Part shown: positions 14,741 through 43,248 of the stretch, piece after piece | How positions within the stretch are numbered: position 1 is the first letter of the stretch | Layout: every line of letters begins with the position of its first letter | Origin: an uncultured Gammaproteobacteria bacterium | Lineage (GTDB): Bacteria; Patescibacteriota; Microgenomatia; Levybacterales; UBA12049 | NCBI GenBank assembly: GCA_964598355.1 | Contig: CAZRBN010000001.1 | Span: forward strand, 5,839-69,838 | Direction of reading: 5' to 3' | DNA length: 64,000 nucleotides | Notes under the pieces: generated by a model | Databases searched by the model: none | What the model was told of the DNA's origin: nothing | Seen by the model: the letters and a program-made list of their open reading frames with translations, nothing else | Translations under genes and position numbers: made by a program

Positions 14741-15862
14741 TTACTTTCCCACAGTAGGAGTTACTGGAGTAGCAGTTACTTTGCATCCACCCTTATTTAT
14801 TTCACACGCAATAAAAGCTTGAATTTCTGAAAAATCTCCATCCCCAATTCTTGGTATAAGAGCAGCAGCATAACTGTATGTAGGAGATAAGGGGGCATTC
14901 ATAAGAAGACCAGGACGCCCAGTAATAGCATCTCCATAATCCAAAACAGCATTTTCTATTTTTGCACTTCGTAATTTAGGAGCAAGCTGTAAAAATAATC
15001 CTACCTCTTGTTGCTTAATATCTGTATCAATGCTACTTTGTAAAATGCTGTAGAGATTTGCCAGCCTATTTGGATTAAAGATTGTCTGCAATGAAAATAT
15101 TTTTTCTCTAAATGCTTCTATGACTTTTTGTTGTCGGGCAGATCGAGCAAAATCACTTCCTTCAGCTCCCAGAGCATGACGAGACCGTACATATTCAAGT
15201 GCTGTCTGTCCATCCATGTGCTGCTTGCCTGGATCAAAATGCAAGTGTTTGTATCGGCACGGGAAAAACTCCAAAGCTGACGAATCACTCGCATTTTTTG
15301 AATAGTCCTTAATTTCAGCATCTGTATGCCCACAGGTCTCCTCCTCTTTTCCCTCAATTGGATATAGATAATCATCAAGTGTCCGGTCTACAGTCACATC
15401 AACCCCTCCAACTTCATCTACAGCCTTTACAAAGCCCTGGAAATCAATTCTGAATGCATAATGCATTGGTTGTCCGGTTATTTTTCCGACTTCTGATTTT
15501 GCTAAAGATAGCCCTTCAGGAGGAGTATTATCTTGTCCGTCAGCATACACTGCATTTACTTTTTCAGAAAGGTGTGTTACCCATAAGTCTCTCGGAATTG
15601 ATATCAATGTCACTTTATTTACTTTCACATCAATACTGGCAAGTATCATGGTATCTGTAAGATTTGGTCCATCATGAGTGCCCCCACCAATACCAAGAAG
15701 TAAGATATTTGTCTTTCCATTGGTAGAGGCAAGAGAGGGTGCTGTATGGAGCAAAACCTGAGTAGCAGTTGGAGCAACACGTTGGAAGAGTGGCCAGAAA
15801 AGCCAACCCAAAAAGGCAACAAGAATAAGACTAACAATGATAAATCCTTTACGCATGATCAA
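14741..15862 (-). CDS. LytR-CpsA-Psr (LCP) family cell-envelope glycopolymer transferase
   Basis: N-terminal TM helix, then ILLLGIGGGTHDGPNLTDTMILASID...ISIPRDLWV, the LCP-domain signature. Confidence 0.8.
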   Translation of the reverse strand: MIMRKGFIIVSLILVAFLGWLFWPLFQRVAPTATQVLLHTAPSLASTNGKTNILLLGIGGGTHDGPNLTDTMILASIDVKVNKVTLISIPRDLWVTHLSEKVNAVYADGQDNTPPEGLSLAKSEVGKITGQPMHYAFRIDFQGFVKAVDEVGGVDVTVDRTLDDYLYPIEGKEEETCGHTDAEIKDYSKNASDSSALEFFPCRYKHLHFDPGKQHMDGQTALEYVRSRHALGAEGSDFARSARQQKVIEAFREKIFSLQTIFNPNRLANLYSILQSSIDTDIKQQEVGLFLQLAPKLRSAKIENAVLDYGDAITGRPGLLMNAPLSPTYSYAAALIPRIGDGDFSEIQAFIACEINKGGCKVTATPVTPTVGK

Positions 15863-16521
15863 CTATTAGTAATAATATCGGCAAACAATTGAGGATTAAG
15901 ACTATCTTTTCCTGGTAAAACACCATCCACAGAAGGCTGAGTTGTAAATGAAGAAACATTTTCAGGGCTTACGCTTCCTCCGTAAATAGTTGTTGTCATA
16001 CCTTTTTCTTTAAAGAATTTCAAAACTTCTTCTGCATCTTCCGGGGTATCGGCTATTCCAGTCCCAATGGCAAATACAGGCTCATATGCAATGACGTGTA
16101 CTCCTTCAGGCACTGGTGTTTCTTTTCCTTGGACACAAACAACTGGTATCAGTCCTGCTTTTAATACTTGTTGGGATTTTTGTGCAACTATTTCATCTGT
16201 TTCACCTAGATTTCGTCTTTCGGAATGACCAACCAAAATATATTGTACAAACTCTTTGAGTTGCACTGCTGCGATCTCACCTGTATGAGCTCCTTCATCA
16301 AATGGAGATACATCCTGTGCTCCAAGAATAAAAGGTAAAGCATATTCCTGAATAAGAGCTGAAGAGAGTGACAGCAGTTCAAAAGGTGGACAAAGAATGA
16401 TAGTTTTATTCTCCAGATTTGAGAATTGAGGTTTCAAGTGAGAAATCTTTTCAAACCACTCTGCAGCTTCTGAGACTGTCTTATGTGATTTCCAGTTACC
16501 GATAATATATATTTTTTTCAT
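15859..16521 (-). CDS. tpiA: Triosephosphate isomerase
   Basis: Motifs GNWKSH, VGHSERR, AYEPVFAIGTG and YGGSV. 220 aa. Overlaps the LCP gene by 4 bp. Confidence 0.85.
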   Translation of the reverse strand: MKKIYIIGNWKSHKTVSEAAEWFEKISHLKPQFSNLENKTIILCPPFELLSLSSALIQEYALPFILGAQDVSPFDEGAHTGEIAAVQLKEFVQYILVGHSERRNLGETDEIVAQKSQQVLKAGLIPVVCVQGKETPVPEGVHVIAYEPVFAIGTGIADTPEDAEEVLKFFKEKGMTTTIYGGSVSPENVSSFTTQPSVDGVLPGKDSLNPQLFADIITNS

Positions 16522-16556
16522 GTGTTAAAATAGTAGAAGTCTTTCTATTATAGCCT

Positions 16557-18413
16557 ATGAACAATGACCTTCTCAAGCAACTGAATAAACAGCAACAAGA
16601 GGCTGTTTTGTACAACCAAGGCCCCATGATTATCCTCGCCGGTGCAGGATCTGGGAAAACTCGTGTTCTTACCTTTAAAGTATTATACCTAATATCCGAA
16701 CTGAAAATTTCTGCCGTAAATATTTTATGTCTTACCTTTACTAACAAAGCTGCCAATGAAATGAAAGAGCGTATTCAAAAAATTCTTTCAGCAACAAGTC
16801 AACCAACCGTTGCTACTTTTCATTCTCTATGTGCAAAAATTCTCAGGCGTGAAGCGATGCATCTGGGAATGACCTCTGATTTTGTTATCTATGATACACA
16901 AGATCAGCAGGATGCTCTTAAACAAGTCATGGAGCTTTTAAATATTTCAACCAAAGAATACAAACCTGCAGCAATTCATGCTATGATATCTCAGGCTAAG
17001 AATGAAATGCTTTCTCCTTCTGAATATAGTCAATTTGCAAAAGGGACATTTCAGCAAGTAGTTAGCATTGTCTATTCTGCCTATCAAAAACTCCTCAAAG
17101 CAAATAATGCATTTGATTTTGACGATTTACTCCTTCAAGTTGTTGCCCTTTTTGACCAGCATCCGGAAATCCTTGAAAAGTATCAAGAGAAATTTCAGTA
17201 TATTCTTATTGATGAGTATCAGGATACGAATAAAGTCCAATACAAACTTACTCGACAATTAGGAAGAAAGTACAACAATGTGTGTGTGGTTGGAGATTTT
17301 TCTCAGTCCATCTATTCCTGGCGTGGAGCTGACTTTCAAAATCTTTCTAAATTCAAGGTTGATTTCCCAAATGTCCGGACTTTTGAGCTATCTCAAAATT
17401 ATCGTTCTACGCAAAAAATTCTTGATGCTGCATCTCATGTTATTTCCCACAATACCACTCACCCAGTCCTTAAGTTGTGGACAAAAAATGATGGTGGAGA
17501 AGAATTGGTAGTCTATGAAGCACGAAACGAACAGGAAGAAATACTGTTTATCACAAGCTTTATCCAAAATTATGGATCAGATAATTTATCTGACATTGCT
17601 ATTTTGTATAGGACAAACGCGCAATCCCGCGTTGTTGAAGAAATTCTTCTGCACCATGGCATTCCTTACACTCTCATTGGGGGAACACGATTTTATGAGA
17701 GAAAAGAAGTTAAGGATGTTCTATCATACTTGCGTGCAGTTGTTAATCGAAAAGACAGTGTTTCATGGAAAAGAATTGAAAAATTAGGAAAAACTCGCCT
17801 TCTCAAATTTGAAGTCTTTTTGGAAGACCTGAAAGGGAAAGACCCTTTACCAACCATTGATTTATTGGATGGCATTATGCGTGCAACTGGATATTTGGAT
17901 TTGTATGATGAAGATGACGAAGAAGATAGACAAAGGCTGGAAAATATTAAAGAACTCCGCTCTGTTGCTCTCTCTTTTTCTAGTGTAGTGAATTTCTTAG
18001 AAAATGTTGCACTTGTTGAACAAGAGTATTCTCCTACAGCCCAAGCAGGTATGCCTGATGGGTCAGTAGGACAAAAAACAAATGCTGTTACACTTATGAC
18101 TCTTCATGCTGCAAAGGGACTGGAATTCCCTGTTGTTTTTATGATTGGTATGGAAGAAGGCCTTTTCCCACACAGTCGATCTCTTATGGATAAAAATGAG
18201 TTGGAAGAAGAAAGAAGACTTTGCTATGTGGGGATGACACGAGCTAAAGAACGGCTTTTTCTTACCTATACTACGAAACGTCTCTTTTTTGGACAACGTA
18301 GTACAAATACTATCTCAAGGTTTATACTAGAATTACCTGAAGATGTCATTGGAGAGCAGCTCAAGCCTCCAGGGTATAAGGACAGTGATGGAGATTATCC
18401 AGACTACCTATGA
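16557..18413 (+). CDS. pcrA: ATP-dependent DNA helicase PcrA/UvrD (SF1)
   Basis: QQEAVLYNQGPMIILAGAGSGKTRVLT (Walker A), DEYQDTN (motif II), plus the conserved VGDFSQSIYSWRGA and LMTLHAAKGLEFPVVF motifs. Confidence 0.85.
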   Translation: MNNDLLKQLNKQQQEAVLYNQGPMIILAGAGSGKTRVLTFKVLYLISELKISAVNILCLTFTNKAANEMKERIQKILSATSQPTVATFHSLCAKILRREAMHLGMTSDFVIYDTQDQQDALKQVMELLNISTKEYKPAAIHAMISQAKNEMLSPSEYSQFAKGTFQQVVSIVYSAYQKLLKANNAFDFDDLLLQVVALFDQHPEILEKYQEKFQYILIDEYQDTNKVQYKLTRQLGRKYNNVCVVGDFSQSIYSWRGADFQNLSKFKVDFPNVRTFELSQNYRSTQKILDAASHVISHNTTHPVLKLWTKNDGGEELVVYEARNEQEEILFITSFIQNYGSDNLSDIAILYRTNAQSRVVEEILLHHGIPYTLIGGTRFYERKEVKDVLSYLRAVVNRKDSVSWKRIEKLGKTRLLKFEVFLEDLKGKDPLPTIDLLDGIMRATGYLDLYDEDDEEDRQRLENIKELRSVALSFSSVVNFLENVALVEQEYSPTAQAGMPDGSVGQKTNAVTLMTLHAAKGLEFPVVFMIGMEEGLFPHSRSLMDKNELEEERRLCYVGMTRAKERLFLTYTTKRLFFGQRSTNTISRFILELPEDVIGEQLKPPGYKDSDGDYPDYL

Positions 18414-18472
18414 CGAAATAAAGGCACAGAAATCTCTTGTGTCCCTTTTGGCTCTTTTGGTACCTGTTAGAA

Positions 18473-19495
18473 ATGAGTATGTGGAGAGATATAACACCCA
18501 AAGATAAAGATGCTTTTAATAAGCTCGCAACACATCCTTTACAATCCTTTGAATGGGGAGAATTTCGTGAACATACAGGGATAAGAGTGGTAAGACGTGG
18601 TTTAGAACAAAATGACAAATTAATACAAGCTTTTCAACTAACAATTCATAACATTCCCCGTACGCCTTGGACCATAGGCTATTTACCAAAAGGCACTCTA
18701 CCCACAAAGGAATTATTGGAAGAACTACAAAGAGTTGGAAAAGAAAACAATTGTATTTTTATACAATTGGAACCCAATGTTCAGAAGCAAGAATTAGGAA
18801 TCATGAATCAAGGGAAGAATTGGAAATTGCCACAGGCTGCACATCCACTTTTTACAAAACATACCTTACAGCTTGATCTGACAAAAGCAGACGAAGATCT
18901 CCTCAAGGCAATGCATCCCAAAGCAAGGTATAACATTAAAGTTGCTCAAAAGCACAATGTTATTGTTAAAGAAGAAAATTCCTCAAAAGCCTTTGATATA
19001 TTTTGGGAATTGACCGAAAAAACAACATCTCGTCAACGGTTTTTTGCTCATACAAAGTCCTACCACCAAGCCCAATGGAAGACGCTTCCTCATAATGCAA
19101 AAGAGAATATACTCTCTTCACATTTACTCATTGCAACATATAAAGACCAACCGCTTACCGCATGGATTGTTTTTATTTTTAAAGATAGCTTGTACTATCC
19201 ATACGGTGCATCTTCTCAAGAGCATCGTGAAGTCATGCATTCAACGCTCATGATGTGGGAAGCAATTTGCTTTGGAAAAAAGCATAAACTGAAGTTTTTC
19301 GATTTGTGGGGCTCGGCTGCACCAGGAACTCCTCCATCAGATCCCTGGTTTGGCTTTACACAGTTTAAAGAGCGCTTTGGACCAGAGAGAATAGAATTCG
19401 TAGGAAGTTACGATTTAATAATTAACCCCCTGCTTTACCAAGGCTACAAACTTGCTGATAAACTCCGTTGGTTGATCCTGAAATTAAGCAAGTAA
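18473..19495 (+). CDS. FemAB-family peptidyltransferase (peptidoglycan interpeptide-bridge formation, FemX/MurM-like)
   Basis: About 340 aa; the sequence resembles lipid II:aminoacyl-transferases of the FemABX family (...QSFEWGEFREHTGIRV...FFDLWGSAAPGTPPSDPWFGFTQFKERFG). The ORF track places the first ATG at 18437; the start is uncertain. Confidence 0.55.
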   Translation: MSMWRDITPKDKDAFNKLATHPLQSFEWGEFREHTGIRVVRRGLEQNDKLIQAFQLTIHNIPRTPWTIGYLPKGTLPTKELLEELQRVGKENNCIFIQLEPNVQKQELGIMNQGKNWKLPQAAHPLFTKHTLQLDLTKADEDLLKAMHPKARYNIKVAQKHNVIVKEENSSKAFDIFWELTEKTTSRQRFFAHTKSYHQAQWKTLPHNAKENILSSHLLIATYKDQPLTAWIVFIFKDSLYYPYGASSQEHREVMHSTLMMWEAICFGKKHKLKFFDLWGSAAPGTPPSDPWFGFTQFKERFGPERIEFVGSYDLIINPLLYQGYKLADKLRWLILKLSK

Positions 19496-20086
19496 TTTGT
19501 AAACAAAGATTTTCTTTTCTTCATCACGCTTGAGTAATTTCAAATGCCCCTTATATGCCTCTTTTGGAAAATCATATATATACGTAATAAGAAGAGTTCC
19601 AGGCTTAAGCTCTTTAAAAAATTTCTTTGAAAGACCAGTGAGTGCTTTTGGAACCAAATAGACAAAAATAACAGTTGCTGCTGAAAGAGGTACATCAAAA
19701 AAGTTCTTTTTAATAATAGTTATATCTATTTCCTTTGATACTAAGTTTGACTTGGTCTTTTTCTGGTTTTCTTTTTTAATCGCGTTTGATGTGACCATAA
19801 CATTCCACTTAGCTAGCCAAACACGTACAGGATCTATTTCTATTCAAACACCTTTTGCTCCAAATTCTTTTGCTGCAATACATAAAGCCTTACCAGTTCC
19901 ACATCCTAAATCATAAATACTGTCTTTTGATGAAAGCTTTGCAACTTTACACATTTCTCGTATAACATCCTCAGGCATTTGCCACCAGGGAGCCCAGGGA
20001 CTATCAGGGGGCCACACTGCTGATAAAACAAGGAAAAGACCAAAGATAATAAGAAGGACCATAAGCTCAGTAAGAATAAATGCCAT
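19484..20086 (-). pseudogene. Membrane-anchored class I SAM-dependent methyltransferase interrupted by a single in-frame TGA (19844-19846) at a conserved Gly position
   Basis: Upstream ORF: TM helix plus DLGCGTGKALCIAAKEFGAKGV (SAM motif I). Then TGA, then in the same frame IEIDPVRVWLAKWNV-MVTSNAIKK.... The post-I motif G(V)GIEIDP of methyltransferases predicts Gly exactly where the TGA sits. Confidence 0.6.
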
Positions 20087-20222
20087 AGCTTTTATACTAC
20101 AAGAGCATATAGGTTATGGCAATGGCAGAAGTGCATGCAGAGATTGATGAAAAATAGAGTGAGATACTAAGTGCTTACTAAAAGCATGGAATCTCTTACT
20201 ATTCTAGTATCCCGTGTCTCTT

Positions 20223-21296
20223 TTACTTTAGGTATTTGTCGAAAAAGGCAATTGAGCGGTCCATTGCCAAAGAAAAGTTATGAGAAATATTATGATTGTC
20301 ACCAGAATATGTGTATAATTCTGCACTCTTTCCCAAACTCTTCAATTTATTGTATACATTCTCAGAAAAAGATACTGGTACTTCTTCATCCTGTTCTCCT
20401 GCCTGTATTTGGATAGGTGCTGTTATATCTTTGAGAAAGAATGTCGGGTCAATGGAATTCCAAAAATTTGGGTTAGATTCTGGGGTACCATATGATTTTT
20501 CAAGGTTTGCTCTATAACGATATCGAAGTGAGAGCTCATACGCAGAAGGGTGATATGCAGGGTCATGCCAATGCTCCAAATCTGTATATGTTCCAATAAC
20601 GCCTCCCCAAATGACCGCAGCTTTTATATCCTTTGTATTAACAACAATATTCCGAAGAGTAATATTACCACCCAGAGAATGTCCCCACATGCCAATTTTT
20701 TGAGGATTAGCATCCTTATATCTTTTTACAGAAGCGACCCCATTTAAGACATCTGTAGCATACGCTGATGAATAATATGCACCTTCTGGCTTACCATCTG
20801 AATTTCCATTCCCTCTATAATCCGGCTTCAAAACAATATAACCTGCACGTGCAAAAGGAGGATAATAGGTGGCATACTGCCCTATTTCAGGAAATGTTTG
20901 ATAGGTTGTCGGTGCAATATACCCATGATTAAAAACAATCACAGGCCATCCACTCCTTGGTTTCTGTCCTTCTGGAATAGTCATTAACGCATAAATTTTA
21001 TTCCCTTCAGATTGATAACTAACAATGTATTGGTTGTAATTACTTCCACTAGAAAGTGTCTGTTCTATAATAATGTCACTTCCTGGATACGTTTGCTGTC
21101 GCATGTTTGCAATACTTAGTGAGATAGAGGGAACATGAGGAGTTACTTGTTGTGAACTACTCTCCTTTAATGGAGGTAGGACTTGTCTATAGGCAAGATA
21201 TCCTCCAATACCCACAAGAAGTATCAACATAATAAGTAACATCTTCTTCATATACCTATTGTACACCTGAGGAATAAGAAACTCCTGAAAAATCAC
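20223..21296 (-). CDS. Secreted/membrane-anchored alpha/beta hydrolase, prolyl-oligopeptidase (S9)/esterase-like
   Basis: Signal/TM MKKMLLIMLILLVGIGGYLAY, the GHSLGG nucleophile elbow (GxSxG) and a C-terminal Asp/His region. An alternative start is MKKM at about 21251. Confidence 0.7.
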   Translation of the reverse strand: MIFQEFLIPQVYNRYMKKMLLIMLILLVGIGGYLAYRQVLPPLKESSSQQVTPHVPSISLSIANMRQQTYPGSDIIIEQTLSSGSNYNQYIVSYQSEGNKIYALMTIPEGQKPRSGWPVIVFNHGYIAPTTYQTFPEIGQYATYYPPFARAGYIVLKPDYRGNGNSDGKPEGAYYSSAYATDVLNGVASVKRYKDANPQKIGMWGHSLGGNITLRNIVVNTKDIKAAVIWGGVIGTYTDLEHWHDPAYHPSAYELSLRYRYRANLEKSYGTPESNPNFWNSIDPTFFLKDITAPIQIQAGEQDEEVPVSFSENVYNKLKSLGKSAELYTYSGDNHNISHNFSLAMDRSIAFFDKYLK

Positions 21297-21640
21297 CTCT
21301 GGGGATAGATAACTTTTCCAACAAGAAACTCTTTAGAAACCCATCCAAAGTGCCTACTATCTGTACTTTCCTTCTTATTATCTCCTTCTACAAAAAGTTT
21401 TTCTTTATCTATCTGCATTATTCGCTTTACTAATAATCGTCCATTTCTTGGATCTTTCAGAACAACTATATTTCCTGTTCTTAGATTTCCAAACAACCAA
21501 ACAAGTATCTTTTGTTTTGGGAAAAGGGTCGGTGTCATACTGGCTCCAACAATATCAAAAATACGTATTGGAACTAGAATGGATAGTATTTTTTTAAAAT
21601 TTTTGAGAATTGAAGATTGATTGGAAATTGGAAATTGCAA
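21293..21640 (-). CDS. sodX: S26-family signal-peptidase-like protease, candidate SodX (NiSOD maturation peptidase)
   Basis: 115 aa. DIVGASMTPTL is the S26 catalytic Ser box; VKRIM and GDNKKESTDSRHFGWV are further S26 boxes. It sits immediately downstream of the NiSOD gene. Confidence 0.65.
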   Translation of the reverse strand: MQFPISNQSSILKNFKKILSILVPIRIFDIVGASMTPTLFPKQKILVWLFGNLRTGNIVVLKDPRNGRLLVKRIMQIDKEKLFVEGDNKKESTDSRHFGWVSKEFLVGKVIYPQR

Positions 21641-21648
21641 ATTTAAAA

Positions 21649-22089
21649 TTATTTTGCTGCTGCAGCTTTTGCTTTTTCAAACATGTCTGCTATTTCATTT
21701 ACAGCCATTACTAATTTTTCTGCTGATTCCATACTAACATGCTGTTTATTTTCCGAACACAATTTTGCTGCTTTCCAAAAAGTGTCATGAAGATTTGGAA
21801 ACATTTCCAAATGTTGTGGTTTAAAATAATCAGTCCATAGGATAAGGAGCTCTTCCTTGCATTTTCTTGCGTGCTCTTCTTTAGTCCAAATGTAGCGAAC
21901 AAAATTTGCGTGATCATCAGTGGTCCATTTGTCTTTTTCTGGAAGTGCATCTACTTTTTCAACCATTTTTGCGACTGTCGCTGCTGCAATTTGTGCTGGT
22001 TTTGGATCATAAATGCCACATGGGATATCACAATGTGCATACACAGGCTGAGAAGGAAGAACAGAAAGAAGTTGACTTAGAATGTTCAT
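21649..22089 (-). CDS. sodN: Nickel superoxide dismutase precursor (NiSOD)
   Basis: An 18-aa propeptide MNILSQLLSVLPSQPVYA is followed by HCDIPCGIYDP. This is the Ni-hook His-Cys-X-X-Pro-Cys-Gly-X-Tyr that must become the mature N-terminus. 146 aa, the normal NiSOD size. Confidence 0.8.
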   Translation of the reverse strand: MNILSQLLSVLPSQPVYAHCDIPCGIYDPKPAQIAAATVAKMVEKVDALPEKDKWTTDDHANFVRYIWTKEEHARKCKEELLILWTDYFKPQHLEMFPNLHDTFWKAAKLCSENKQHVSMESAEKLVMAVNEIADMFEKAKAAAAK

Positions 22090-22214
22090 ATTTTCATATT
22101 AGTTCTGATATATAAAAAAGTCAACAGGAATAAGATAAAAATTGTTACATTGTTAAACACGAACAAAAATAAAAAGCAAGAATTCAAAATAGCAGCTGAT
22201 AAAATAATGTAGGC

Positions 22215-23969
22215 TTAGAAAATAATACGAACGCCACCTAAATCAGAGTATTCGAATGGATGCTCATCATGAATAGACCCAATAAGAATTCTATTCTTTC
22301 TTATTTTAAATTCTTTTGAAACTTCATCGATAAGGTCGGGACTAAATGGTTTATTTTTATATACCACATCCATATTGAAATGAGGGAAAGCGCCTGCCTT
22401 TTTTAAGTTTGGTAATACTTCTTTTAATTCTTCAAGGCTTTTATCATATTGTTCTTTATTGCCATTATTACAATGCACGAGAATAACATTTCTTCCTGTT
22501 TCATTTTTATTAATGTATTCAAGTACTTGAAATAAGCGATCCACATGGTGAATAAAGACGACAAAACTACCATTAGTTACATCTTGAAAATTTTTGTAAA
22601 CAAATTCATCAATTTTTCTAAGATATTTTGTAAATCGCAAAATAAGTTGTAATACCCAGTCAAATCGTAAAGAAAGAAAAACAAAAAGGATTGCTGGAAC
22701 AAAATACATTCCGAAATAATCAAGATTTAATGGATTAATTTTTATATTTCCAATAACTCCAGCCACTGTTGCAAAGAATGCAATGAGTACAAAGATAACT
22801 GGAGCTCGATATGTTCTTTTTAGTTCAGTTCTGGTTTCTCGCATAATAAGATTACCGAGTGCAAACAAACTCATAACAGAAAGGAATGCAATGGTATATA
22901 CACCTGCAAGTGATAGTAGATTACCATTTGTTATAAGAAGAATTGATGTACATAAAAGGAAAAATGCAACAACAATTCCTGGATAAGAACCTTTACTATT
23001 TTCTTTTGCTAAAAAGTTAGGAAAACAACCATCCGTTGTCATACGATAAATAAGCCCACTTACGCCAACAAATGCTGTTAACACTGCACCAGCAAGTACT
23101 AAAAATGCATCTGCAATAAGAATATATTGGAAAATTATTCCGCCCATAGCCCTTGCAACGTTTGAAAGAAGAAAATCTTGAGACTTGAGAATAGTGTCAA
23201 ATGGTAAAACATTTAATGCAGCAAGAGCTGTTAAAGGATTAAAAATAGCAACACCGATTAACATGTTACGAAGTGTTTTTCGAAATACTCCTGGTCCTTG
23301 TTCTTCAACGAAATTTGCCGAACTTTCATATCCAGATACTCCTAAAAGTGAAGTTGAAAAGCCAAAGAAAAATGCTGGAATAATACCACCAACCTGAGAA
23401 ATAAGTAACCTGGTGTGAGTAATATTCTCAAAGAAGTACCAATGTCCTCCATGAACACTATAGAAAATTGCATATCCGACAAATACAGTAAGCACCAAAA
23501 TATGGAATACAAAAATAGAAAAAGCAACTTTCGCAGAGTCTTTAATACCTGAAATAACCAAAACTGCAAAAGCGAGCATGAGAAGAATTGTCACTGGAAT
23601 AACAGGAATACTGATTGCTGAATGAATGTATTCAATAGCTGTTTTTCCTGAGATCACGGCTGTTGCAACATATGATAACAATGTCATTGTACCTGCGACT
23701 GCAGCTAACGTCTTTGAAGTTGCATTAAGCAAACAATTATATGCTCCCCCATTTGTAGGAAGTGCTTCGACTACTTCTATATAGACTGCTTTGTATAAAA
23801 ACAAAACAACAGCAATAGAAAGAAGAATAAGTGGTGCAAAAACGCCAGCAAATGCAATAGCAATACCGGAAACGTAAAATGTGGAACTTAAAATATCATT
23901 ACCACAAATAGCGGTTGCAAACCACTGATTTAATTTAATATGTTCCTTACGTACAGGCTTTGTTACCAT
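22215..23969 (-). CDS. APC-superfamily amino acid/polyamine permease with an extra ~140-aa C-terminal cytoplasmic domain
   Basis: 12-TM APC-like core (GNDILSSTFYVSGIAIAFAG...) followed by a hydrophilic C-terminal domain of unknown function. Confidence 0.65.
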   Translation of the reverse strand: MVTKPVRKEHIKLNQWFATAICGNDILSSTFYVSGIAIAFAGVFAPLILLSIAVVLFLYKAVYIEVVEALPTNGGAYNCLLNATSKTLAAVAGTMTLLSYVATAVISGKTAIEYIHSAISIPVIPVTILLMLAFAVLVISGIKDSAKVAFSIFVFHILVLTVFVGYAIFYSVHGGHWYFFENITHTRLLISQVGGIIPAFFFGFSTSLLGVSGYESSANFVEEQGPGVFRKTLRNMLIGVAIFNPLTALAALNVLPFDTILKSQDFLLSNVARAMGGIIFQYILIADAFLVLAGAVLTAFVGVSGLIYRMTTDGCFPNFLAKENSKGSYPGIVVAFFLLCTSILLITNGNLLSLAGVYTIAFLSVMSLFALGNLIMRETRTELKRTYRAPVIFVLIAFFATVAGVIGNIKINPLNLDYFGMYFVPAILFVFLSLRFDWVLQLILRFTKYLRKIDEFVYKNFQDVTNGSFVVFIHHVDRLFQVLEYINKNETGRNVILVHCNNGNKEQYDKSLEELKEVLPNLKKAGAFPHFNMDVVYKNKPFSPDLIDEVSKEFKIRKNRILIGSIHDEHPFEYSDLGGVRIIF

Positions 23970-25449: not shown

Positions 25450-26004
25450 CTATAGCGTTGCAATTGTCGCTTTAAGACGCTTAAAGTCTTGTTCAAAATA
25501 GACAAAATTTTTTACAAATCGAATAGCTGCTGCAGGATGATAGCTTATAAAATATTTCTGTCCATTTTTATTTATTACTTTTCCGTGTTCTTTGGCAACT
25601 GATACCGACATGTCTAAAACTGCTTTACTTGCAACACTTCCCAAAAGTACGAGTAATTGTGGCTGTATAATACCAATTTGTTTCCATAAATAGTGTTTCC
25701 CATGATCTATCTGTTCTTGAGAGAGAGTACCTGTAGCAGGCAAATATTTACCTAAACTTGTTATAAAGACTTCATCTTCTGAAAGTCCTATATCACGTAT
25801 TTGTTTTCTCAGAAGTTGCCCTGAGCGACCAATAAAAGGACGTCCTGTTTCTGCTTCTTGTTTGCCAGGTGCTTCCCCAATAAACATAATGCTAGCATTA
25901 GGATTTCCTTCTCCCGGAACAGGTTTTCCCAAAGATCCTTTTTGGCATACTCTACAATGTGCAATTTCTTCAGCAATTTCTGCCAGTTGTCCCTTTTTAT
26001 TCAT
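25450..26004 (-). CDS. Uracil-DNA glycosylase, family 4
   Basis: HCRVCQK...GEGNPNASIMFIGEAPG...GRPFIGRSGQLL are the family-4 UDG motifs, including the Fe-S Cys ligands. Confidence 0.8.
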   Translation of the reverse strand: MNKKGQLAEIAEEIAHCRVCQKGSLGKPVPGEGNPNASIMFIGEAPGKQEAETGRPFIGRSGQLLRKQIRDIGLSEDEVFITSLGKYLPATGTLSQEQIDHGKHYLWKQIGIIQPQLLVLLGSVASKAVLDMSVSVAKEHGKVINKNGQKYFISYHPAAAIRFVKNFVYFEQDFKRLKATIATL

Positions 26005-29000
26005 GATTGTGTTGTTTTAGAGGAAGATAGACATATATCTTGGTCCCTTGCCCAACTGAACTCTCAACCCACATTTTTCCTTCATGTCTTTTAACAATTT
26101 CTGATGATATATGAAGGCCTAGTCCAAGACCAGGAAAATTCTGTCCATTACGTATGGGTGAGCGATAAAATGGCTCAAAAATATTTTCTTGATCATTTTT
26201 TTCAATACCTACCCCATAATCTTTTACACATATAGTAACGCCTTTATTATCTTCCGTGAGAAGAACATCTACTGTATCTGCATCAGGGGAATATTTAATA
26301 GCATTGGTCAGTAGATTAATAATGACTTGTCTCATTCTTTCTTTATCAAGAAGTATTATTTTTTTTGATTCACCTATTAAATTGAGCTTATGAGTAACGG
26401 TTGTATATTGTATTTCTTCAATGGTATCTTTCAGAAGATTTTCTATAGCTACTTTTTCTTTATTAAACATAATCTTCCCTGACTTAATTTTTGTTACATC
26501 AAGTAAATCGTTAATAAGTTTTGTCAATCTATCCAACTGAACGTCCAATTTTGTAATCATGGTATATGTTTTTTGATCTCCTAATTGTTGTATCCTTTCA
26601 CTTAAAATACCCGCGTATAATTTTGCACTGGTAATAGGAGTTTTGAGTTCATGGCTCGCTGTACTAATAAACTCGTCTTTTAATTTCTCTTTTTGTTTTT
26701 CTTCTGTAATATCTTGAGCAACAGAAACAATGAGCAAAATATTTCCTGCATCATCAAAGATAGGTGCTGAGGTCACTTGTCTCCATTGATTTTCATGGGT
26801 ATCTCGAAAAGTAACACACATAGTAATTTGGGTTGGTTTTTTTTCACGCATAGTGCGATGTAGTGTCATTTGATCCTCAGACAACAAATGTCCCTCTTCA
26901 TCAACAATTTTTTCAAACCTGGAAAGGTAATTATCGTAGGATATATCTTCAACAAATTCTTCTATACTAGAATATCTATTTAACTTCGCTGCTGCATGAT
27001 TAACATATAAAATATCTCCTTTTGCATCCCATACAACAACAGCATCTGCAACATTTTCAAATATGATTTCTAACTCATCTTTTGATTGTTTGATTGTGGT
27101 CTCATATTCTATTCGCTCAGTAATATCTCTGTAATTTATTACCAATGCTTTAATATTTTGATTGTGCAGCATATTTCTTCCTACACCTTCCATCCAAGGA
27201 ATTGACCCATTTTTATTAATTCTCCTGTACGTAATGGGAAGCAGCTGATCTCCAGGAGAAGAGACTAATTCTTTAATAAACATTTTTACTTTTTCTTGAT
27301 CTTTAGGGTAAATAGCACTAACCATTGATTTTTTTAATTGTTCTTCAGGAGAATATCCAGTCACTCTTTTTGTAGATGGACTTGAATAAATAATAGTTCC
27401 ATTTGCATCTGTTAAGACGATTGCATCTGAGCTATATTCAATAAGAGCTCTAAAGCGTGCTTCTCTTCTTTCAATTTCCTGAGTAACTAATTTCTTCTCA
27501 TGAATATCTGTCTCGGTTCCAAACCAGCGAGTAATAATACCTTTCCTATTCTTAATCGGAACTGCTTTTGATAAAAACCATCGATATTCTCCCTTCTTAT
27601 TACGAATACGAAACTCTACTTCATACGGCTTTTTCTCCCTTCGTGCTTTCTCCCACTGCTCGTGTACAAACTTTTTATCGTCGGGATGAAGCACTTCAAG
27701 CCAAAGATCTTTCTCTATTAGTTTCTCCTGAGAAATTCCGGTATATTCTTCCCATCTCATATTGTAATATTCCGATTTCCCTATTTTATCGCCAGTCCAT
27801 ACAAGTTGTGGAATAGTTTCGGCAAGTTGCCTCCAATTTTCTTCACTTTGACGAAGACTTTCGGTAATTCGTTTTTCTTTTTCATAAATGTTGGACCTTT
27901 CTATAGCCTGAGAAGTCTGCTGAGCAAGTGACATAATAAAGCTCTTGTCTTCTTCTGTAAAAGAGACGGTTTTATCAAAGAGCAATTGAAGACATCCAAG
28001 GACTTCTCCACCAACTGACAAGGGAACTGTTGCTTGCGACTTGAAATTAGTTGCATCTACAAATTTCTTTGCAACTGTATAATGCGAAGGAAAATCAAAA
28101 ATATTACTAATATAAAATGGATAATTCTTTTTAAGTACCTCCCACATAATTAACGGTTCTTTTTCTGAAAATTCATCCTTTTTTTTAATATTTTTATCTA
28201 TGTAATATTTGGGGTATCCACGATAAGCAACAATCCGTAAAGTCTTTTTGTCTTCACTCAATAAAGCAACCTCTCCACCATTCGCCCCAAGAATTTTCAT
28301 TCCTTCCTTCATAATTGTTTGGAGAACTTGTTGTAGTGTGACCGCTTTAGATAACAGAGAGGTAATATGCTGTAGTGATTCTATTCTTTTTAATACAATT
28401 CTTAAGTACTCTTTTTGAGACTTTTCCTCCTCATACATTTTTGCCCTCTCATAAGCTTGCGTAAATAATTGTGAAAGCGTTATCAAAAATTCTGTCTCAT
28501 CTTTTGTAAACTTATTATGGTGTTTGAAGAATAGTCCTAAAACACCCACGGAATTATTTTCTGCTACAAGAGGCATTAATGCTCCTGCATTGCAATCAAT
28601 TCTATGAGCAAATTGTCTCATAACTACATACTCCTGAGATAAAGAGGAGAAATCGGTAATCATGAGAGGAAGTTTTGTCTTAATAACATCCATCATAAGT
28701 AAAGGCTGGTTTACTGAAGCTTCCATCCATGTACCAGTCCCACTTTTTGTAAATGATGTAGGATAGCCTGCAAAAGTAAGTATTTTTATGTTTTTTCTAT
28801 CTTCAGAAAGTACTGTTATTTCTCCGCCAATAGCATTTAATCCTTTTATTGCCTCCTCAATGATAATTTTGCCAATTTCTTTTGGAGTTAAAGCTTTTGA
28901 GAGAGAAACAGTAATTGTATTAAGAGCTTTGATGCGGTCAACAACCTGTGTCAAGGCATTTTTTTGCCGTAACTCCTCATCATATAAACGCGCCCGATCC

Positions 29001-29545
29001 ACAGCCTGAGAACATTGCTGCACAAGAGCATACAGAAATTCTTGTTCTTCAACCGTAAATTCTTGTATTTCCTTAAAAGCGAAATTGACACATCCTAACA
29101 CTGTGTTACCAGCCAAAAATGGTATTGCAATAAAACCTTCTTTTTCTGTTTTAGTAAAAATATCAGCTATATGTGGATAGAGTTTTTTCTTTTCTTCAAA
29201 TGAACGAAGAAAGACTGGCTTACGCATTCGGATTGCGTCTTGAATGGGAGTGGGAACATCTTCTCGTAAAGTAGTTACCTTTTCAATCTGCTCCTTGCTG
29301 TACCCCATATATGCAGTAAGAGAGAGTTTTTTTTGCTCATCAAAAAGCCATACTGATCCAGCACTTGCATGAATTGTAGCAGCACCCAAGCTAACCACTA
29401 TTTCCGCTATTTGCTGACTAGTAACTGCTTGTGTAAGAGCTGTTGTGACGTATTGAAGACGATATAATCTATCACGAGCTTCCTCAGCTTCGTGAAGAAT
29501 AGTTTCTTCTGATAATAATATCTTTCCTTTTTTTGCGTTTCCCAC
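25997..29545 (-). CDS. Large cytoplasmic multi-sensor histidine kinase (3 GAF + 3 PAS + HisKA + HATPase_c)
   Basis: 1182 aa. H-box FISTASHELKTPITS and C-terminal G-boxes (DYGVGIEKNDQENIFEPFYR...GLGLGLHIS). Repeated GAF and PAS modules; no TM segments. Confidence 0.8.
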   Translation of the reverse strand: MGNAKKGKILLSEETILHEAEEARDRLYRLQYVTTALTQAVTSQQIAEIVVSLGAATIHASAGSVWLFDEQKKLSLTAYMGYSKEQIEKVTTLREDVPTPIQDAIRMRKPVFLRSFEEKKKLYPHIADIFTKTEKEGFIAIPFLAGNTVLGCVNFAFKEIQEFTVEEQEFLYALVQQCSQAVDRARLYDEELRQKNALTQVVDRIKALNTITVSLSKALTPKEIGKIIIEEAIKGLNAIGGEITVLSEDRKNIKILTFAGYPTSFTKSGTGTWMEASVNQPLLMMDVIKTKLPLMITDFSSLSQEYVVMRQFAHRIDCNAGALMPLVAENNSVGVLGLFFKHHNKFTKDETEFLITLSQLFTQAYERAKMYEEEKSQKEYLRIVLKRIESLQHITSLLSKAVTLQQVLQTIMKEGMKILGANGGEVALLSEDKKTLRIVAYRGYPKYYIDKNIKKKDEFSEKEPLIMWEVLKKNYPFYISNIFDFPSHYTVAKKFVDATNFKSQATVPLSVGGEVLGCLQLLFDKTVSFTEEDKSFIMSLAQQTSQAIERSNIYEKEKRITESLRQSEENWRQLAETIPQLVWTGDKIGKSEYYNMRWEEYTGISQEKLIEKDLWLEVLHPDDKKFVHEQWEKARREKKPYEVEFRIRNKKGEYRWFLSKAVPIKNRKGIITRWFGTETDIHEKKLVTQEIERREARFRALIEYSSDAIVLTDANGTIIYSSPSTKRVTGYSPEEQLKKSMVSAIYPKDQEKVKMFIKELVSSPGDQLLPITYRRINKNGSIPWMEGVGRNMLHNQNIKALVINYRDITERIEYETTIKQSKDELEIIFENVADAVVVWDAKGDILYVNHAAAKLNRYSSIEEFVEDISYDNYLSRFEKIVDEEGHLLSEDQMTLHRTMREKKPTQITMCVTFRDTHENQWRQVTSAPIFDDAGNILLIVSVAQDITEEKQKEKLKDEFISTASHELKTPITSAKLYAGILSERIQQLGDQKTYTMITKLDVQLDRLTKLINDLLDVTKIKSGKIMFNKEKVAIENLLKDTIEEIQYTTVTHKLNLIGESKKIILLDKERMRQVIINLLTNAIKYSPDADTVDVLLTEDNKGVTICVKDYGVGIEKNDQENIFEPFYRSPIRNGQNFPGLGLGLHISSEIVKRHEGKMWVESSVGQGTKIYVYLPLKQHNHE

Positions 29546-30021
29546 GGTAAATAGACCGCTTTTGTGGCAGTAATCTTAGCATATCATACTTCCTATTATG
29601 AAACCTCCGTAAACAAAAAGATAATAACTCCAATGATGATAATTAAAACCACAATGTTAGAAAGTCCCGCAAAAAAAAATACCGAGCAACGACAAAATCC
29701 ATAAAAGAAGTAATACTCTAGCAATTTCTCGAAAAGGACGTGGAAGAATACCAATCATTGCCAATACAACAGCTAACACTAGTAGATTTCATAAAGAAAT
29801 AGGATGCCCATTTATGGAAAATAGTATGGGGTTAGGAATAGCAAAAAGTATGATAGGAATATATCCAAGTACCCATAATACAACAAGAATAAGAAGTAAC
29901 GCTAATAACACACAGACATTCTATTCATTCAACCATACAAGCGTATACAAAATAAGTAAGAATACCTTAAGATTTTTTGGTTTGAATAGTGAAAAACAGT
30001 AATCTGTGGTATTATACATGT

Positions 30022-30564
30022 ATGACAGAGCTTGCAACATTCGCCAGTGGCTGTTTCTGGTGTACAGAGGCAATTTTTAAAAGACTGAAAGGAATTATTT
30101 CAGTGACTTCTGGATACGCCGGAGGAAACAGCAAAGATCCAAGTTATGAACAGGTTTCAACTGGAGCAACAGGACATGCAGAAAGTCTTCAAATAAAATT
30201 TGACCCATCAATTATTCCGTATCATCACTTACTCGATATTTTCTGGCATACGCATAATCCAACCACTCTGAATCAACAAGGTGCTGATAGAGGGACACAG
30301 TATCGCTCTATTATTTTTTATCATTCAGATGAGCAAAAAAAAATTGCCGAAAATTCAAAAGAAGAATTAGAAAAGTCAGGTACGTATAAAGATCCTATTG
30401 TTACAGAAATCGTTCCATTTACTAACTTCTATCCTGCAGAAGATTACCATAAGGATTATTATGACACGAACAAATCTGCGCCTTATTGCACATTTGTCAT
30501 CGACCCAAAAATACAAAAACTGCTAAAAGAATTTGGAAATGATGTAAAAGAAGAATATAAGTAA
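30022..30564 (+). CDS. msrA: Peptide methionine sulfoxide reductase MsrA
   Basis: ATFASGCFWCTEAIF is the catalytic GCFWC motif. ...GHAESLQIKFDP...HNPTTLNQQGADRGTQYRS. The ORF track opens at 29989; M at 30022 fits the family N-terminus better. Confidence 0.85.
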   Translation: MTELATFASGCFWCTEAIFKRLKGIISVTSGYAGGNSKDPSYEQVSTGATGHAESLQIKFDPSIIPYHHLLDIFWHTHNPTTLNQQGADRGTQYRSIIFYHSDEQKKIAENSKEELEKSGTYKDPIVTEIVPFTNFYPAEDYHKDYYDTNKSAPYCTFVIDPKIQKLLKEFGNDVKEEYK

Positions 30565-33075
30565 TTAAGCACTCGGAAGTGAAAGGGTAAAAACAGATCC
30601 TTTCCCTAACGTACTTTCAACGCTTATATCACCTCCATGTTTGGTAACAATATCCCGTGTTATATAAAGTCCCATTCCTAATCCTGGATAGGTACTTTCT
30701 CTTTTCCCAAGAACACGGTAGTACGGTTTGAAAATATTGTGGAGATCTTTTTCTGGAATTCCTATTCCTGAATCCTTCACTGAAAGATGCACATACGCAC
30801 CCTTTTTAGAAAGCGTAAGAATTATTTCCTTCTTATCTTGTGAATATTTTGCTGCATTAGACAGAAGATTGGCCAAGACTTGTTCCATTCTGTACCTATC
30901 TATAGTAACAATACTATCTGTTTTGCCTTTTACAATAAGATGAAAATCCGGAAGAAGTTCTTGATACTGATCGATAAACTCCTTTATAAAAAAATCAAAG
31001 TATATTTCTTTTAATTGTAACGATAGCTTGCCTTGCTGAATAGTCGATTGATCCAATAAATCAGATACAAGTTGCTGTAGCTTATCAATTTGTTCTGCTG
31101 CTTTGGTAACATACTCTGTTTGCTTCCTCGTATCAAGTTTTTTAATATCTGACAGCAAATGCATATAGATTTTAAGACTCGTTAATGGTGTTTTTAACTC
31201 ATGGGATGCCATACTAATAAAGTTATTTTTTCTAACATCTATATCTTTAAATTCTGTAATATCTTGCAACACATTAATGACCAATGGATTTTTTCCATGA
31301 CCTTTATAAATGACTGTTGAAGTAATAGTTAACCAACGAGATTTATTTGTTTTTTTATTAACAAACTTTATTGTTACTTGAACAGTTTTACCAGTTTCGA
31401 ATGCCTTTCTACCTGGCATATTTTCTAGTGGAAATTTTTTACCATACTCATCTTGTAAATCAAATTTATAAATATATTCAAATCGGGGAGATTTCATCAT
31501 CTGTTCTATTGATTCGTATCCTAGCAAATGCATTGCTTCTTTATTTGCATACACAAGAGTGCTTTCACTATCCTGGACTATAACTCCATTAGGAATATTT
31601 TTCAGAATAGCCTCTAATTCCTGCTGTGTATCAATAACTTGTTGCTGAATATTTTTTTCTTCTGTACTATTTCTGTTATACACTGCAATACCTTCAATAC
31701 TTGGATAGATATAATTTTCATACCACATGTTGTGAGATGGATAATATTGAGTCACTGTCATCGGAGTTCTATTTTTCATGACCTGACGCATCGCCTTCCC
31801 TATCTCCAACTTTTCTACATCTGGAAAAACATTCCAAACAGTTTTTCCTAGAACATCATCTCTTTTGATATGCCCCATTTCTTCTCCTTTTTTATTTACA
31901 TATACATAACGCCACTCTTTATCCATAGCATAGTATCCGTAATTAAAATTCTCAACAATTTCCGTAATCTTTCTATTTTTTCCTTCAAGTTCTAATTCAT
32001 ATAATTTTTTGTCTGTAATATCACGAAAATTTGAAACAATACCTTTCACTGCTGCATCAGCAAGGAAATTTGATGAATTTGCTTCTATCCAACGCCATTC
32101 ACCCTTTTTATTTTTTACACGAAATTCTCCTTTTATATTCTTTTCTTTTGTAAACAGCATTTTACGAATATTCATTATAAGAGGGAAATCATCTGGGTGA
32201 ATGATTTTTTGTAAGGACATTTTCAAAAACTCATCCTGAGAATATCCTAAAATTTTTTTTATAGATGATGAAACATACGTGAATTTTAAATTTCCATTAC
32301 TTACAAGGATTCCATCTGAACTATTTTCAATAAGAGATCTGAACTTTTTTTCATTCATTAAAAGATCTCTTTTCACTGATTCATGTTCTGTTATATCCCT
32401 GTTAATCTCTAAGATTTTTGTTGTATCGCCTACATGTAATAAGGACCAGCGACTTTGAATAATAAGTTCTTTACCTTTTTTGGTAATGTGTTTTATAGTA
32501 CCTTCCCATGTTTTTTTCTTCTCAATTTCTTTATGAATTTTTTCAAGAGAAATAGGATATACTGTCTTCAGAATAGTATCTCCATGCTTACCAATAACTT
32601 CATTGCTCTTCCACCCATATAAATCTTCTGACCCTTTATTCCAAAAAACTATTTTATTATTTTTATCCATAATGAAAATCGCCTCATGAGACAGTTCTAT
32701 AAGTTTTGCTTTTTCAATAAGATCTTCTTCAAGTTTATGTCTATTGGTAATGTCTGTATAAAAGATCACTATCCCTTGACTAGTCTTGTAGGCATTCCCT
32801 CGAAGCCATTGCTTACCACCTGATGAATAATATTCCCAGGTATAAGGTTTGCCGGTTTTGAGAACTATTTGAAGGGGCTTTCCTAATTTTGTATGTAAAA
32901 TGCCTGGGAAAATATCAGTTACTTTCTTTCCCAAAACATCCTCTTTTATCTTATTAATAATCTCGCAAGCTCTTTTATTGATATACGTGTATCGCAGTTC
33001 ATTATCAAACGTAATAATAGCGTCATTAATAGAATCAAACAGAGAAACGAGATGATTATTGCCATCAAAGTCCAT
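30565..33075 (-). CDS. Cytoplasmic multi-PAS sensor histidine kinase
   Basis: 836 aa with about 5 PAS/PAC modules, H-box ISMASHELKTPLTS and an HATPase_c domain with DSGIGIPEKDLHNIFKPYYR. Its stop abuts the msrA stop (convergent, 0-bp gap). Confidence 0.8.
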   Translation of the reverse strand: MDFDGNNHLVSLFDSINDAIITFDNELRYTYINKRACEIINKIKEDVLGKKVTDIFPGILHTKLGKPLQIVLKTGKPYTWEYYSSGGKQWLRGNAYKTSQGIVIFYTDITNRHKLEEDLIEKAKLIELSHEAIFIMDKNNKIVFWNKGSEDLYGWKSNEVIGKHGDTILKTVYPISLEKIHKEIEKKKTWEGTIKHITKKGKELIIQSRWSLLHVGDTTKILEINRDITEHESVKRDLLMNEKKFRSLIENSSDGILVSNGNLKFTYVSSSIKKILGYSQDEFLKMSLQKIIHPDDFPLIMNIRKMLFTKEKNIKGEFRVKNKKGEWRWIEANSSNFLADAAVKGIVSNFRDITDKKLYELELEGKNRKITEIVENFNYGYYAMDKEWRYVYVNKKGEEMGHIKRDDVLGKTVWNVFPDVEKLEIGKAMRQVMKNRTPMTVTQYYPSHNMWYENYIYPSIEGIAVYNRNSTEEKNIQQQVIDTQQELEAILKNIPNGVIVQDSESTLVYANKEAMHLLGYESIEQMMKSPRFEYIYKFDLQDEYGKKFPLENMPGRKAFETGKTVQVTIKFVNKKTNKSRWLTITSTVIYKGHGKNPLVINVLQDITEFKDIDVRKNNFISMASHELKTPLTSLKIYMHLLSDIKKLDTRKQTEYVTKAAEQIDKLQQLVSDLLDQSTIQQGKLSLQLKEIYFDFFIKEFIDQYQELLPDFHLIVKGKTDSIVTIDRYRMEQVLANLLSNAAKYSQDKKEIILTLSKKGAYVHLSVKDSGIGIPEKDLHNIFKPYYRVLGKRESTYPGLGMGLYITRDIVTKHGGDISVESTLGKGSVFTLSLPSA

Positions 33076-33202: not shown

Positions 33203-33775
33203 TTATTGTGTTTCTTCTCTTCCTTTTTTTAAAAGTGTAGCATACCAAATAAGTTGAGGTATCATTGCATCTGCTTGAGATTGAAGATGTTCTGTTTTTA
33301 ACCTTCCCTTTTCATCAAGCTGTGTCCAGTAAAGAGGAATATGCACTCCTGCTCGAATTGGTGTCATCTGCAATTCGATAGCAACTTGTCGAAGCTGTTG
33401 AACAGCTCTTGTACCGCCAGCAATTCCTCCATAGCTAACAAAAGCGATGGGTTTGTTATTCCATTGTTTGTAGACATAATCCAAAGCATTTTTCAAAACA
33501 GCGGAGTATCCATGATTGTATTCAGGAGTTACGATAACGTATGCATCTGCTTCACCAATTTTATCAGCCCATTTTGCAGCTAATTCATTTGTATATTTTC
33601 CACCCGAGGTAGAGGGAGACATAGGCTCATCAAAGAAAGGAAGAGGCCAGTCACGTAAATCAAGAAGCTCTACATCAAGACCTTTTTGTTTTTTTAATTC
33701 TGAAAAAATCCACTGGGCTGGTTGTTCTCCAAAACGCTTTTGTCTAGTACTTCCGATAATTACCTGCACCTTCAT
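33203..33775 (-). CDS. NAD(P)H-dependent FMN reductase family oxidoreductase (flavodoxin-like fold)
   Basis: MKVQVIIGSTRQKRFG...YVIVTPEYNHGYSAVLKNALD is the NADPH-dependent FMN reductase signature. Confidence 0.7.
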   Translation of the reverse strand: MKVQVIIGSTRQKRFGEQPAQWIFSELKKQKGLDVELLDLRDWPLPFFDEPMSPSTSGGKYTNELAAKWADKIGEADAYVIVTPEYNHGYSAVLKNALDYVYKQWNNKPIAFVSYGGIAGGTRAVQQLRQVAIELQMTPIRAGVHIPLYWTQLDEKGRLKTEHLQSQADAMIPQLIWYATLLKKGREETQ

Positions 33776-41836: not shown

Positions 41837-41923
41837 ATATAAAATTAAAAATTATGGTACTTTTATTTATAATACGTGAGGCATCATCACTTTTCACTTT
41901 TAATTGTAAATTTTTAATTTTAT
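41837..41923. promoter_or_regulatory. Recurrent AT-rich element flanked by the inverted repeat AAAATTAAAAATT ... AATTTTTAATTTT; it fills the whole spacer between the ApbE gene and the membrane oxidoreductase gene
   Basis: TATAAAATTAAAAATTATGGTACTTTTATTTATAAT contains TTAAAA, a 17-bp spacer and TATAAT (41868-41873). The reverse-complement arm lies at 41908-41923. Confidence 0.4.
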
Positions 41924-43158: not shown

Positions 43159-43248
43159 ATACGTTTATGTACTATACCATACTTGTCAAAACTGAGAAAT
43201 AGCTGAAAAAATTCTTATATATTATTTTTGGACTATCCTACAAGTTAC

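Follow-up and report, generated by a model that had tools for sequence, protein, structure and literature searches.

The 64,000-nucleotide stretch of DNA analysed here (contig CAZRBN010000001.1, hereafter the window) carries two small adjacent genes on its minus strand. These raise the question of whether they encode a nickel superoxide dismutase (NiSOD) with a removable leader and its own maturation protease, and whether such a sodN-sodX pair is a long-standing resident of the genome or the core of an oxidative-stress island acquired from elsewhere. An initial annotation had proposed the pair and suspected the island. We find that the two genes very probably form an ordinary sodN-sodX operon, kept vertically in a Microgenomates-like genome of the Patescibacteria (candidate phyla radiation, CPR). 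Family models, ligand and catalytic residues, predicted folds, adjacency and lineage placement together lead to this standard system, and no evidence contradicts the assignment. The elements of the pair are listed below, with the basis of each in brackets and lengths in amino acids (aa) or nucleotides (nt).

21649..22089, minus strand: sodN, NiSOD precursor of 146 aa, ATG start (open reading frame, Pfam, TIGR02753, PDB alignment, AlphaFold)
22036..22089, minus strand: leader MNILSQLLSVLPSQPVYA, 18 codons, the predicted removal of which exposes His1 (sequence read, homologue comparison)
22003..22035, minus strand: Ni-hook HCDIPCGIYDP, with the ligands His1, Cys2 and Cys6 and also Asp3, Pro5, Gly7 and Tyr9 (alignment, PDB chains)
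21641..21648, minus strand: spacer of 8 nt from the sodN stop (TAA) to the sodX start (TTG) (sequence read)
21293..21640, minus strand: sodX, S26-family NiSOD maturation protease of 115 aa, TTG start, Ser34/Lys72 dyad (Pfam, TIGR02754, conservation, AlphaFold)

The Sod_Ni profile (PF09055), named in the initial annotation as a search to run, matched SodN with E=5.8e-45 and 153.4 bits (Pfam cutoff 25), so the absence of a significant family match, which would have spoken against the proposal, did not materialize. The NCBIfam equivalog TIGR02753 scored 168.1 bits (cutoff 90) over model positions 4-144 of 145. Residues 19-141 of SodN aligned with residues 1-115 of Streptomyces seoulensis NiSOD (1Q0D, E=8.7e-18), and the alignment with the PDB chains (S. 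seoulensis and S. coelicolor crystal structures) opens precisely at His1. An AlphaFold model, computed with 60 homologues as input, reached a mean predicted local distance difference test score (pLDDT) of 90.2 and contained long helices at residues 30-47, 57-88, 100-116 and 120-145. Foldseek returned 16 significant PDB matches for this model, NiSOD entries only (TM-score 0.88-0.93, normalised to the target), and the right-handed four-helix bundle of a NiSOD subunit is present in it. Together with the hook residues, these family matches and the predicted fold bear out a NiSOD with a propeptide.

For comparison we used the best 80 of 585 related sodN loci, from a scan that took one genome per species; at the protein level, a search gave 4448 SodN homologues. 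The hook directly abuts the 18-aa leader, which ends in V-Y-A, an arrangement read directly from the sequence and already described in the initial annotation. Among related sodN genes the hook follows the leader immediately in 81 of 81, the leader being typically 14-24 aa long. Its last residue (position -1) is Ala in all 81, position -2 is Tyr in 72 of the 81, and position -3 is Val, Ala, Ile or Leu throughout (81/81). Across an alignment of 82 sequences, that of the Streptomyces structure among them, H1, C2, D3, P5, C6 and Y9 were invariant (82/82) and G7 was found in 81, which disposes of the concern that His1, Cys2 and Cys6 might prove unconserved. The leader has no basic n-region and is only weakly hydrophobic (Kyte-Doolittle maximum 0.71 over 19 residues); because of this low hydropathy it is predicted not to be a Sec-type signal peptide. 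By analogy with characterised NiSODs, cleavage would fall directly before His1.

The second gene product, SodX, has the two boxes expected of an S26 peptidase, an SM box at Ser34-Met35 (Ser codon 21541..21539) and a KR box at Lys72-Arg73 (Lys codon 21427..21425). The Peptidase_S26 search that had been suggested alongside Sod_Ni gave E=4.8e-16 and 59.6 bits (Pfam cutoff 22.9). The equivalog for the NiSOD protease, TIGR02754 (sod_Ni_protease), scored 70.4 bits (cutoff 63.25) over model positions 3-88 of 90, and the generic signal peptidase I model TIGR02227 scored less, 56 bits (cutoff 47). S34, M35, P37, K72, D94 and S95 were invariant in 53 of 53 SodX homologues encoded next to sodN; in a 14-row database alignment Lys72 was invariant and Ser34 occurred in every row reaching that position. 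The AlphaFold model of SodX (pLDDT 79.7) has the signal-peptidase/LexA-type beta fold, its best PDB matches being the type-I signal peptidases SpsB, SipA and LepB and LexA C-domains. Clustering of open reading frames (ORFs) places a SodX-like ORF beside sodN in 73 of 81 loci, spread over several phyla, and tblastn detects one in 57. The SodX-specific model, the residues, the fold and this adjacency confirm the S26 protein as SodX, and both family assignments are far beyond chance. The gene does lie directly downstream of sodN as first described; the spacer measures 8 nt rather than the 9 originally given. Among the relatives, the sodN stop and the sodX start after it commonly share 1 or 4 nt or are only a few nucleotides apart, and we infer that such close spacing fits co-translation from one mRNA.

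The start of sodX deserves attention in annotation. TTG is the sole canonical start upstream of the Ser34 codon, and the NCBI gene call is the identical 115-aa protein; the Logan call is an 81-aa protein that begins at Met35 and is without the nucleophile. Seven of 13 database SodX homologues (P0122, P0124, P0127-P0130 and P0136) are likewise called from the Met of the SM box and have no catalytic Ser. SodX starts thus look systematically mis-called, because the true GTG or TTG starts overlap or closely follow the sodN stop. For annotation, this means that gene callers often cut SodX at the SM-box Met and lose the nucleophile.

Cleavage, nickel loading, hexamer assembly and activity are known from the characterised Streptomyces system, and a working scheme for the window pair can be drawn from it. 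SodN would be made as a 146-aa cytoplasmic precursor. SodX, a small soluble Ser/Lys protease probably encoded on the same mRNA, would cut it after Ala18 at V-Y-A|H, before His1, and this cut would release the alpha-amine of His1. The segment HCDIPCGIY would then fold round nickel as the Ni-hook, seated on the four-helix bundle, with the amine and imidazole of His1, the amide and thiolate of Cys2 and the thiolate of Cys6 as ligands, and superoxide would be dismutated via the Ni(II)/Ni(III) couple. By the same analogy SodN would load nickel, assemble into hexamers and have superoxide dismutase activity. A cytoplasmic system is favoured because the hydropathy of the leader is low and the hydrophobic stretch of SodX is short and interrupted.

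The closest SodN matches were metagenome proteins at 66-85% identity, the few named ones being 'superoxide dismutase, Ni [Patescibacteria group bacterium]', and the nearest relatives among species-representative genomes shared 47-72% identity (best segment). The 80 best relatives fall into Patescibacteria (Davies-, Levy-, Curtiss-, Wildermuth- and Yanofskybacteria, Paceibacterota and Saccharibacteria), Chloroflexota (Limnocylindria, Dehalococcoidia and SAR202), a few archaea including Woesearchaeota, and a small set of cyanobacteria, Acidobacteria, Myxococcota and Poribacteria. In a neighbour-joining (NJ) tree without support values, the window SodN groups with Curtiss-, Levy- and Daviesbacteria sequences. 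The host, represented by a metagenome-assembled genome, is an ultra-small, Microgenomates-like member of the Patescibacteria. Several related loci that carry the label 'uncultured Gammaproteobacteria' group with Daviesbacteria or Levybacteria; in one case, locus L002, which has Levybacteria synteny, we take the label to be wrong. A phylogeny of SodN had been called for as a way to find a donor lineage. The nearest sequences are of Microgenomates-type Patescibacteria, and published work infers Chloroflexota as the donor: Patescibacteria NiSOD clades have already been placed within Chloroflexota NiSOD, with at least three sodN transfers proposed between Chloroflexota and Patescibacteria and an onward transfer to Woesearchaea (Sutherland et al. 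2021, bioRxiv 10.1101/2021.01.12.426412). Our taxon list and NJ tree are compatible with this scenario, and the same phylogeny makes the earlier description of NiSOD as mainly a protein of actinomycetes, cyanobacteria and marine bacteria out of date, as it includes Patescibacteria.

Several observations nonetheless weigh against reading the pair as an ordinary sodN-sodX operon. SodX lies only 7 bits above its equivalog cutoff, its TTG start has no visible ribosome-binding site, and Lys-Gln follows its SM box where the first position of the usual G-D/Q is Gly in at least 80% of homologues. In Streptomyces NiSOD, Glu17 and Arg47 are second-sphere partners of His1; the clade of the window SodN is without both, having Ala and His at those positions (78/82 and 74/82 sequences, neighbouring clades included). 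No nickel-importer family appeared in Pfam or NCBIfam scans of about 55 ORFs of the 64-kb window, and the literature searched yielded no biochemical study of any CPR NiSOD. The Glu17/Arg47 pair is a feature of the Streptomyces clade and does not define the family.

A further departure concerns the sodN mRNA, upstream of which we found one candidate element.

22096..22124, minus strand: promoter-like TTGACT-17 nt-TAATAT, separated from the sodN ATG by 6 nt (gaaaat), with no Shine-Dalgarno sequence (consensus scan)

Taken alone, this match is not significant (13 sites in the region, 9.6 expected). This arrangement is repeated in the closest relatives (L002, L004, L005, L007, L008 and L009), and a -10-like hexamer lies 4-9 nt before the sodN start in 28 of 79 loci, compared with 12.3 expected from shifted windows. 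Among the upstream regions compared, which included those of L002-L034, CPR sodN genes tend to lack a Shine-Dalgarno sequence, whereas Chloroflexota sodN genes have GGAGG. These patterns suggest leaderless sodN mRNAs in Patescibacteria, and the window sodN mRNA may possibly be leaderless as well.

The apparently leaderless mRNAs, the missing Glu17/Arg47 and two extra cysteines could be taken to mean that Patescibacteria-type NiSODs are a mechanistically distinct subclass. The cysteines, C59 and C93 of the mature protein (codons 77 and 111; 21859..21861 and 21757..21759, minus strand), are invariant in 60 of 60 close homologues, and both are present in 50 of the 82 sequences of the wider set. 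If the proposal were true, the pair might act as a disulfide, either stabilising or redox-switching, or else provide a second site for metal or for nickel delivery, which might be of consequence in tiny cells that lack a recognisable nickel importer or metallochaperone. We regard a separate mechanism as unlikely.

Gene order gave further support for a pair kept within the lineage. Synteny was assessed by tblastn of all 52 window proteins against the 80 related sodN loci with flanks of up to 6 kb; the recurring genes were just those of the backbone downstream of the pair (methyltransferase, FemAB, UvrD, TIM and LytR), a block at whose end sodN-sodX lies. The order sodN-sodX-methyltransferase-FemAB is common to the five closest loci (L002, L003, L005, L007 and L008). 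UvrD comes next, at 63-65% identity, in L002, L007 and L008, where the fetched locus extends that far, and in L002 and L008 the order continues to TIM and a LytR-family gene, matching window positions 14741..22089. The backbone genes share 47-65% protein identity with those of the closest relatives, from which the window differs in only two respects: a hydrolase inserted after sodX and an in-frame TGA in the methyltransferase gene.

20223..21296, minus strand: alpha/beta hydrolase (Peptidase_S9/Hydrolase_4-like) with an N-terminal membrane anchor (Pfam)

The longest hydrolase ORF has a 4-nt overlap with the sodX stop, but translation may in fact begin some 45 nt later, at the ATG of MKKMLL. 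No terminator-like site was found within 20100..22400, and the hydrolase is probably co-transcribed with sodN-sodX while standing outside the conserved system. A hydrolase is absent from the position after sodX in 80 of 80 related loci; on this comparison, therefore, it is a lineage-specific insertion into an otherwise conserved order.

The PrmA/Methyltransf_31-like methyltransferase gene (19484..20086, minus strand) is split by the in-frame TGA at 19844..19846, where five relatives have Gly (GAKGV*IEIDP versus GAKGVGIEIDP). Either a nonsense mutation or an error in the assembly seems the likely cause. An alternative code with UGA read as Gly, prompted by this codon, was rejected, as TGA ends 15 of 52 window genes, sodX included. 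Elsewhere among the related loci, a Daviesbacteria-like clade carries a thioredoxin-reductase-like gene (Pyr_redox_2, CAVC motif) directly upstream of sodN and in the same orientation at about 20 loci (L004, L010, L011, L013, L014, L019-L021, L023, L024, L028, L031, L032, L039, L052 and L079). A ferredoxin-reductase-like gene is often near these sodN genes too; the redox cluster is genuine there and absent from the window. Ten loci labelled Parcubacteria or Saccharibacteria (L006, L017, L022, L030, L034, L037, L042, L059, L065 and L072) encode, just after sodX, a membrane protein some 229 aa long that carries the 'mechanosensitive channel conserved TM helix' repeat (PF05552); no other conserved membrane protein adjoins sodN-sodX.

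The initial annotation had placed sodN-sodX in a discrete, possibly horizontally acquired oxidative-stress island with four other genes, all of which are present within 12.5 kb of sodN.

25450..26004, minus strand: family-4 uracil-DNA glycosylase (UDG) (TIGR00758, 126.8 bits, cutoff 125.3)
29989..30564, plus strand: MsrA (TIGR00401, 206 bits, cutoff 108.1)
33203..33775, minus strand: FMN_red, FMN reductase (profile scan)
33840..34538, minus strand: Thioredoxin_4/DSBA-like protein (profile scan)

Their presence is the part of the proposal that stands. The four genes are scattered over both strands at 3.4, 7.9, 11.1 and 11.8 kb from sodN, and among them lie two giant PAS/GAF histidine kinases (1182 and 836 aa), an amino-acid permease and an OmpR-type regulator. 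Synteny with sodN was rare in the related loci, where MsrA and UDG were each found in 1 of 80 and FMN_red and the DsbA-like gene in 0 of 80. Acquisition is lent some plausibility by the ancient Chloroflexota-to-Patescibacteria sodN transfers of the published phylogeny (bioRxiv 10.1101/2021.01.12.426412), and redox clustering occurs in the phylum, as the 20 Daviesbacteria-like loci attest. Against it, the composition of sodN (GC 0.372; third-position GC, GC3, 0.238) is within one standard deviation of that of the window genes (0.360 +/- 0.027 and 0.243 +/- 0.031), the GC profile of the window is flat, and the sodX side is a conserved backbone of core genes. The 64-kb window contains no tRNA gene, and neither an integrase nor a transposase family turned up in Pfam scans of its ORFs; no search for flanking direct repeats was made. 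A genomic island, judged by composition and by a unit block with mobility marks, is thus not supported. Recent horizontal transfer by composition was discarded as there is no GC or GC3 deviation, and the claim of horizontal acquisition is not supported, given the matching composition, the Microgenomates-type relatives and the conserved gene order. For the same reasons any sodN transfer must have been ancient. An acquired stress island is therefore very improbable, an impression from a single window that fails comparative synteny, and we favour sodN-sodX as a long-standing, vertically kept component of the lineage in a conserved backbone.

Also very improbable is a reading in which the S26 protein serves as a general type-I signal peptidase and the leader of SodN as a secretion signal, with the enzyme exported and processed outside the cytoplasm: although the cleavage site obeys the signal-peptidase -3/-1 rule, SodX passes TIGR02227 by the scores given above, SpsB and LepB are structural neighbours of its model and its 19-residue hydropathy window rises to 1.72, the leader is short, weakly hydrophobic and without a basic n-region, the hydrophobic stretch of SodX (11 residues before Arg26 and Asp29, running into the catalytic strand) makes an unconvincing anchor, the dedicated TIGR02754 outscores the generic model, sodX is tied to sodN in 73 of 81 genomes of several phyla, and NiSOD is reported to be cytoplasmic elsewhere (PMC8346466). 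SodX as a membrane-anchored general signal peptidase was not adopted, its borderline hydropathy being broken by Arg and Asp.

Within an ordinary sodN-sodX operon, a NiSOD implies a nickel supply, a point of the initial annotation that is logically sound. ORF clustering in 81 loci revealed no conserved transporter adjoining sodN. Metal uptake in the window is represented solely by a ZnuABC/AztABC-like ABC transporter beside a Fur/PerR-like regulator (43249..47106), a system for which every NCBIfam match is far below the equivalog cutoff. The biological question raised is where reduced CPR cells get and insert nickel.

Other features of the window lie apart from the pair. Adjoining the importer and its regulator, genes on the minus strand (40334..47106 in all) encode a fused protein of 500 aa with an RnfD/NqrB-like membrane domain and an FAD/NAD reductase domain, an ApbE flavin transferase and an FMN_bind protein. 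A flavin-based membrane redox module is one possible reading of the region. The two large multi-PAS/GAF sensor histidine kinases lie at 25997..29545 (minus strand, 1182 aa) and 30565..33075 (minus strand, 836 aa), and further kinases lie at 38522..39529 and 47222..48688, which is much signalling for a supposedly minimal CPR genome. The sole Rfam match, RF03531 (18183..18277, plus strand, 67.5 bits, cutoff 65.2), is a Clostridioides difficile small RNA described as 'included into helicase gene'; it falls inside a UvrD-type helicase ORF (16557..18413) and most likely reflects conserved coding sequence.

Overall, sodN-sodX is a known type of system in a group where it has already been documented. 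The CPR host carries a complete-looking, iron-independent superoxide defence, which fits the enrichment of genes for superoxide dismutase among Patescibacteria from oxic groundwater (bioRxiv 10.1101/2021.07.28.454184) and matters little beyond annotation. With the Patescibacteria/Chloroflexota clade of Sutherland et al. (2021) the window shares the same mix of Patescibacteria, Chloroflexota and Woesearchaeota among its relatives; nothing substantive sets it apart, and its SodN is one more member. The text of that study never mentions sodX or a peptidase (bioRxiv 10.1101/2021.01.12.426412), so the adjacency count of 73 of 81 is an addition to it.

Compared with type-I signal peptidases (LepB and SpsB; MEROPS S26), SodX has the same Ser/Lys dyad, SM, KR and GDN..S.DSR boxes and core beta fold. 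It differs in its length of only 115 aa, in having no convincing transmembrane anchor, and in being dedicated to one substrate, as judged by genomic linkage and the better SodX-specific score. The cyanobacterial and marine systems (Prochlorococcus/Synechococcus) follow the same two-gene logic with the same hook, and sodX follows sodN in L073 and L077. In contrast to the window, their NiSODs form a separate NJ clade, the cyanobacterial and Acidobacteria type has C93 and C96 (LCSACK) in place of C59 and C93, and some loci have larger sodN-sodX spacers (for example, 177 nt in L073).

The characterised NiSODs of Streptomyces coelicolor and S. seoulensis (1T6U and 1Q0D) and their SodX resemble the window pair in the Ala-ending leader followed by HCDxPCGxYDP, in the four-helix bundle (TM-score about 0.9), and in the adjacent small Ser/Lys S26 protease, with the same curated equivalog models passed. 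The leader of Streptomyces NiSOD is 14 aa long, whereas that of the window SodN has 18 aa. Identity to the solved chains is only 28-36% in structural alignments, Glu17 and Arg47 are replaced by Ala and His, C59 and C93 are absent from Streptomyces, and the loop after helix 1 is about 8 residues longer in the window SodN. The two substitutions, the longer loop, the extra cysteines and the upstream -10-like hexamer are features of the clade rather than a peculiarity of the window.

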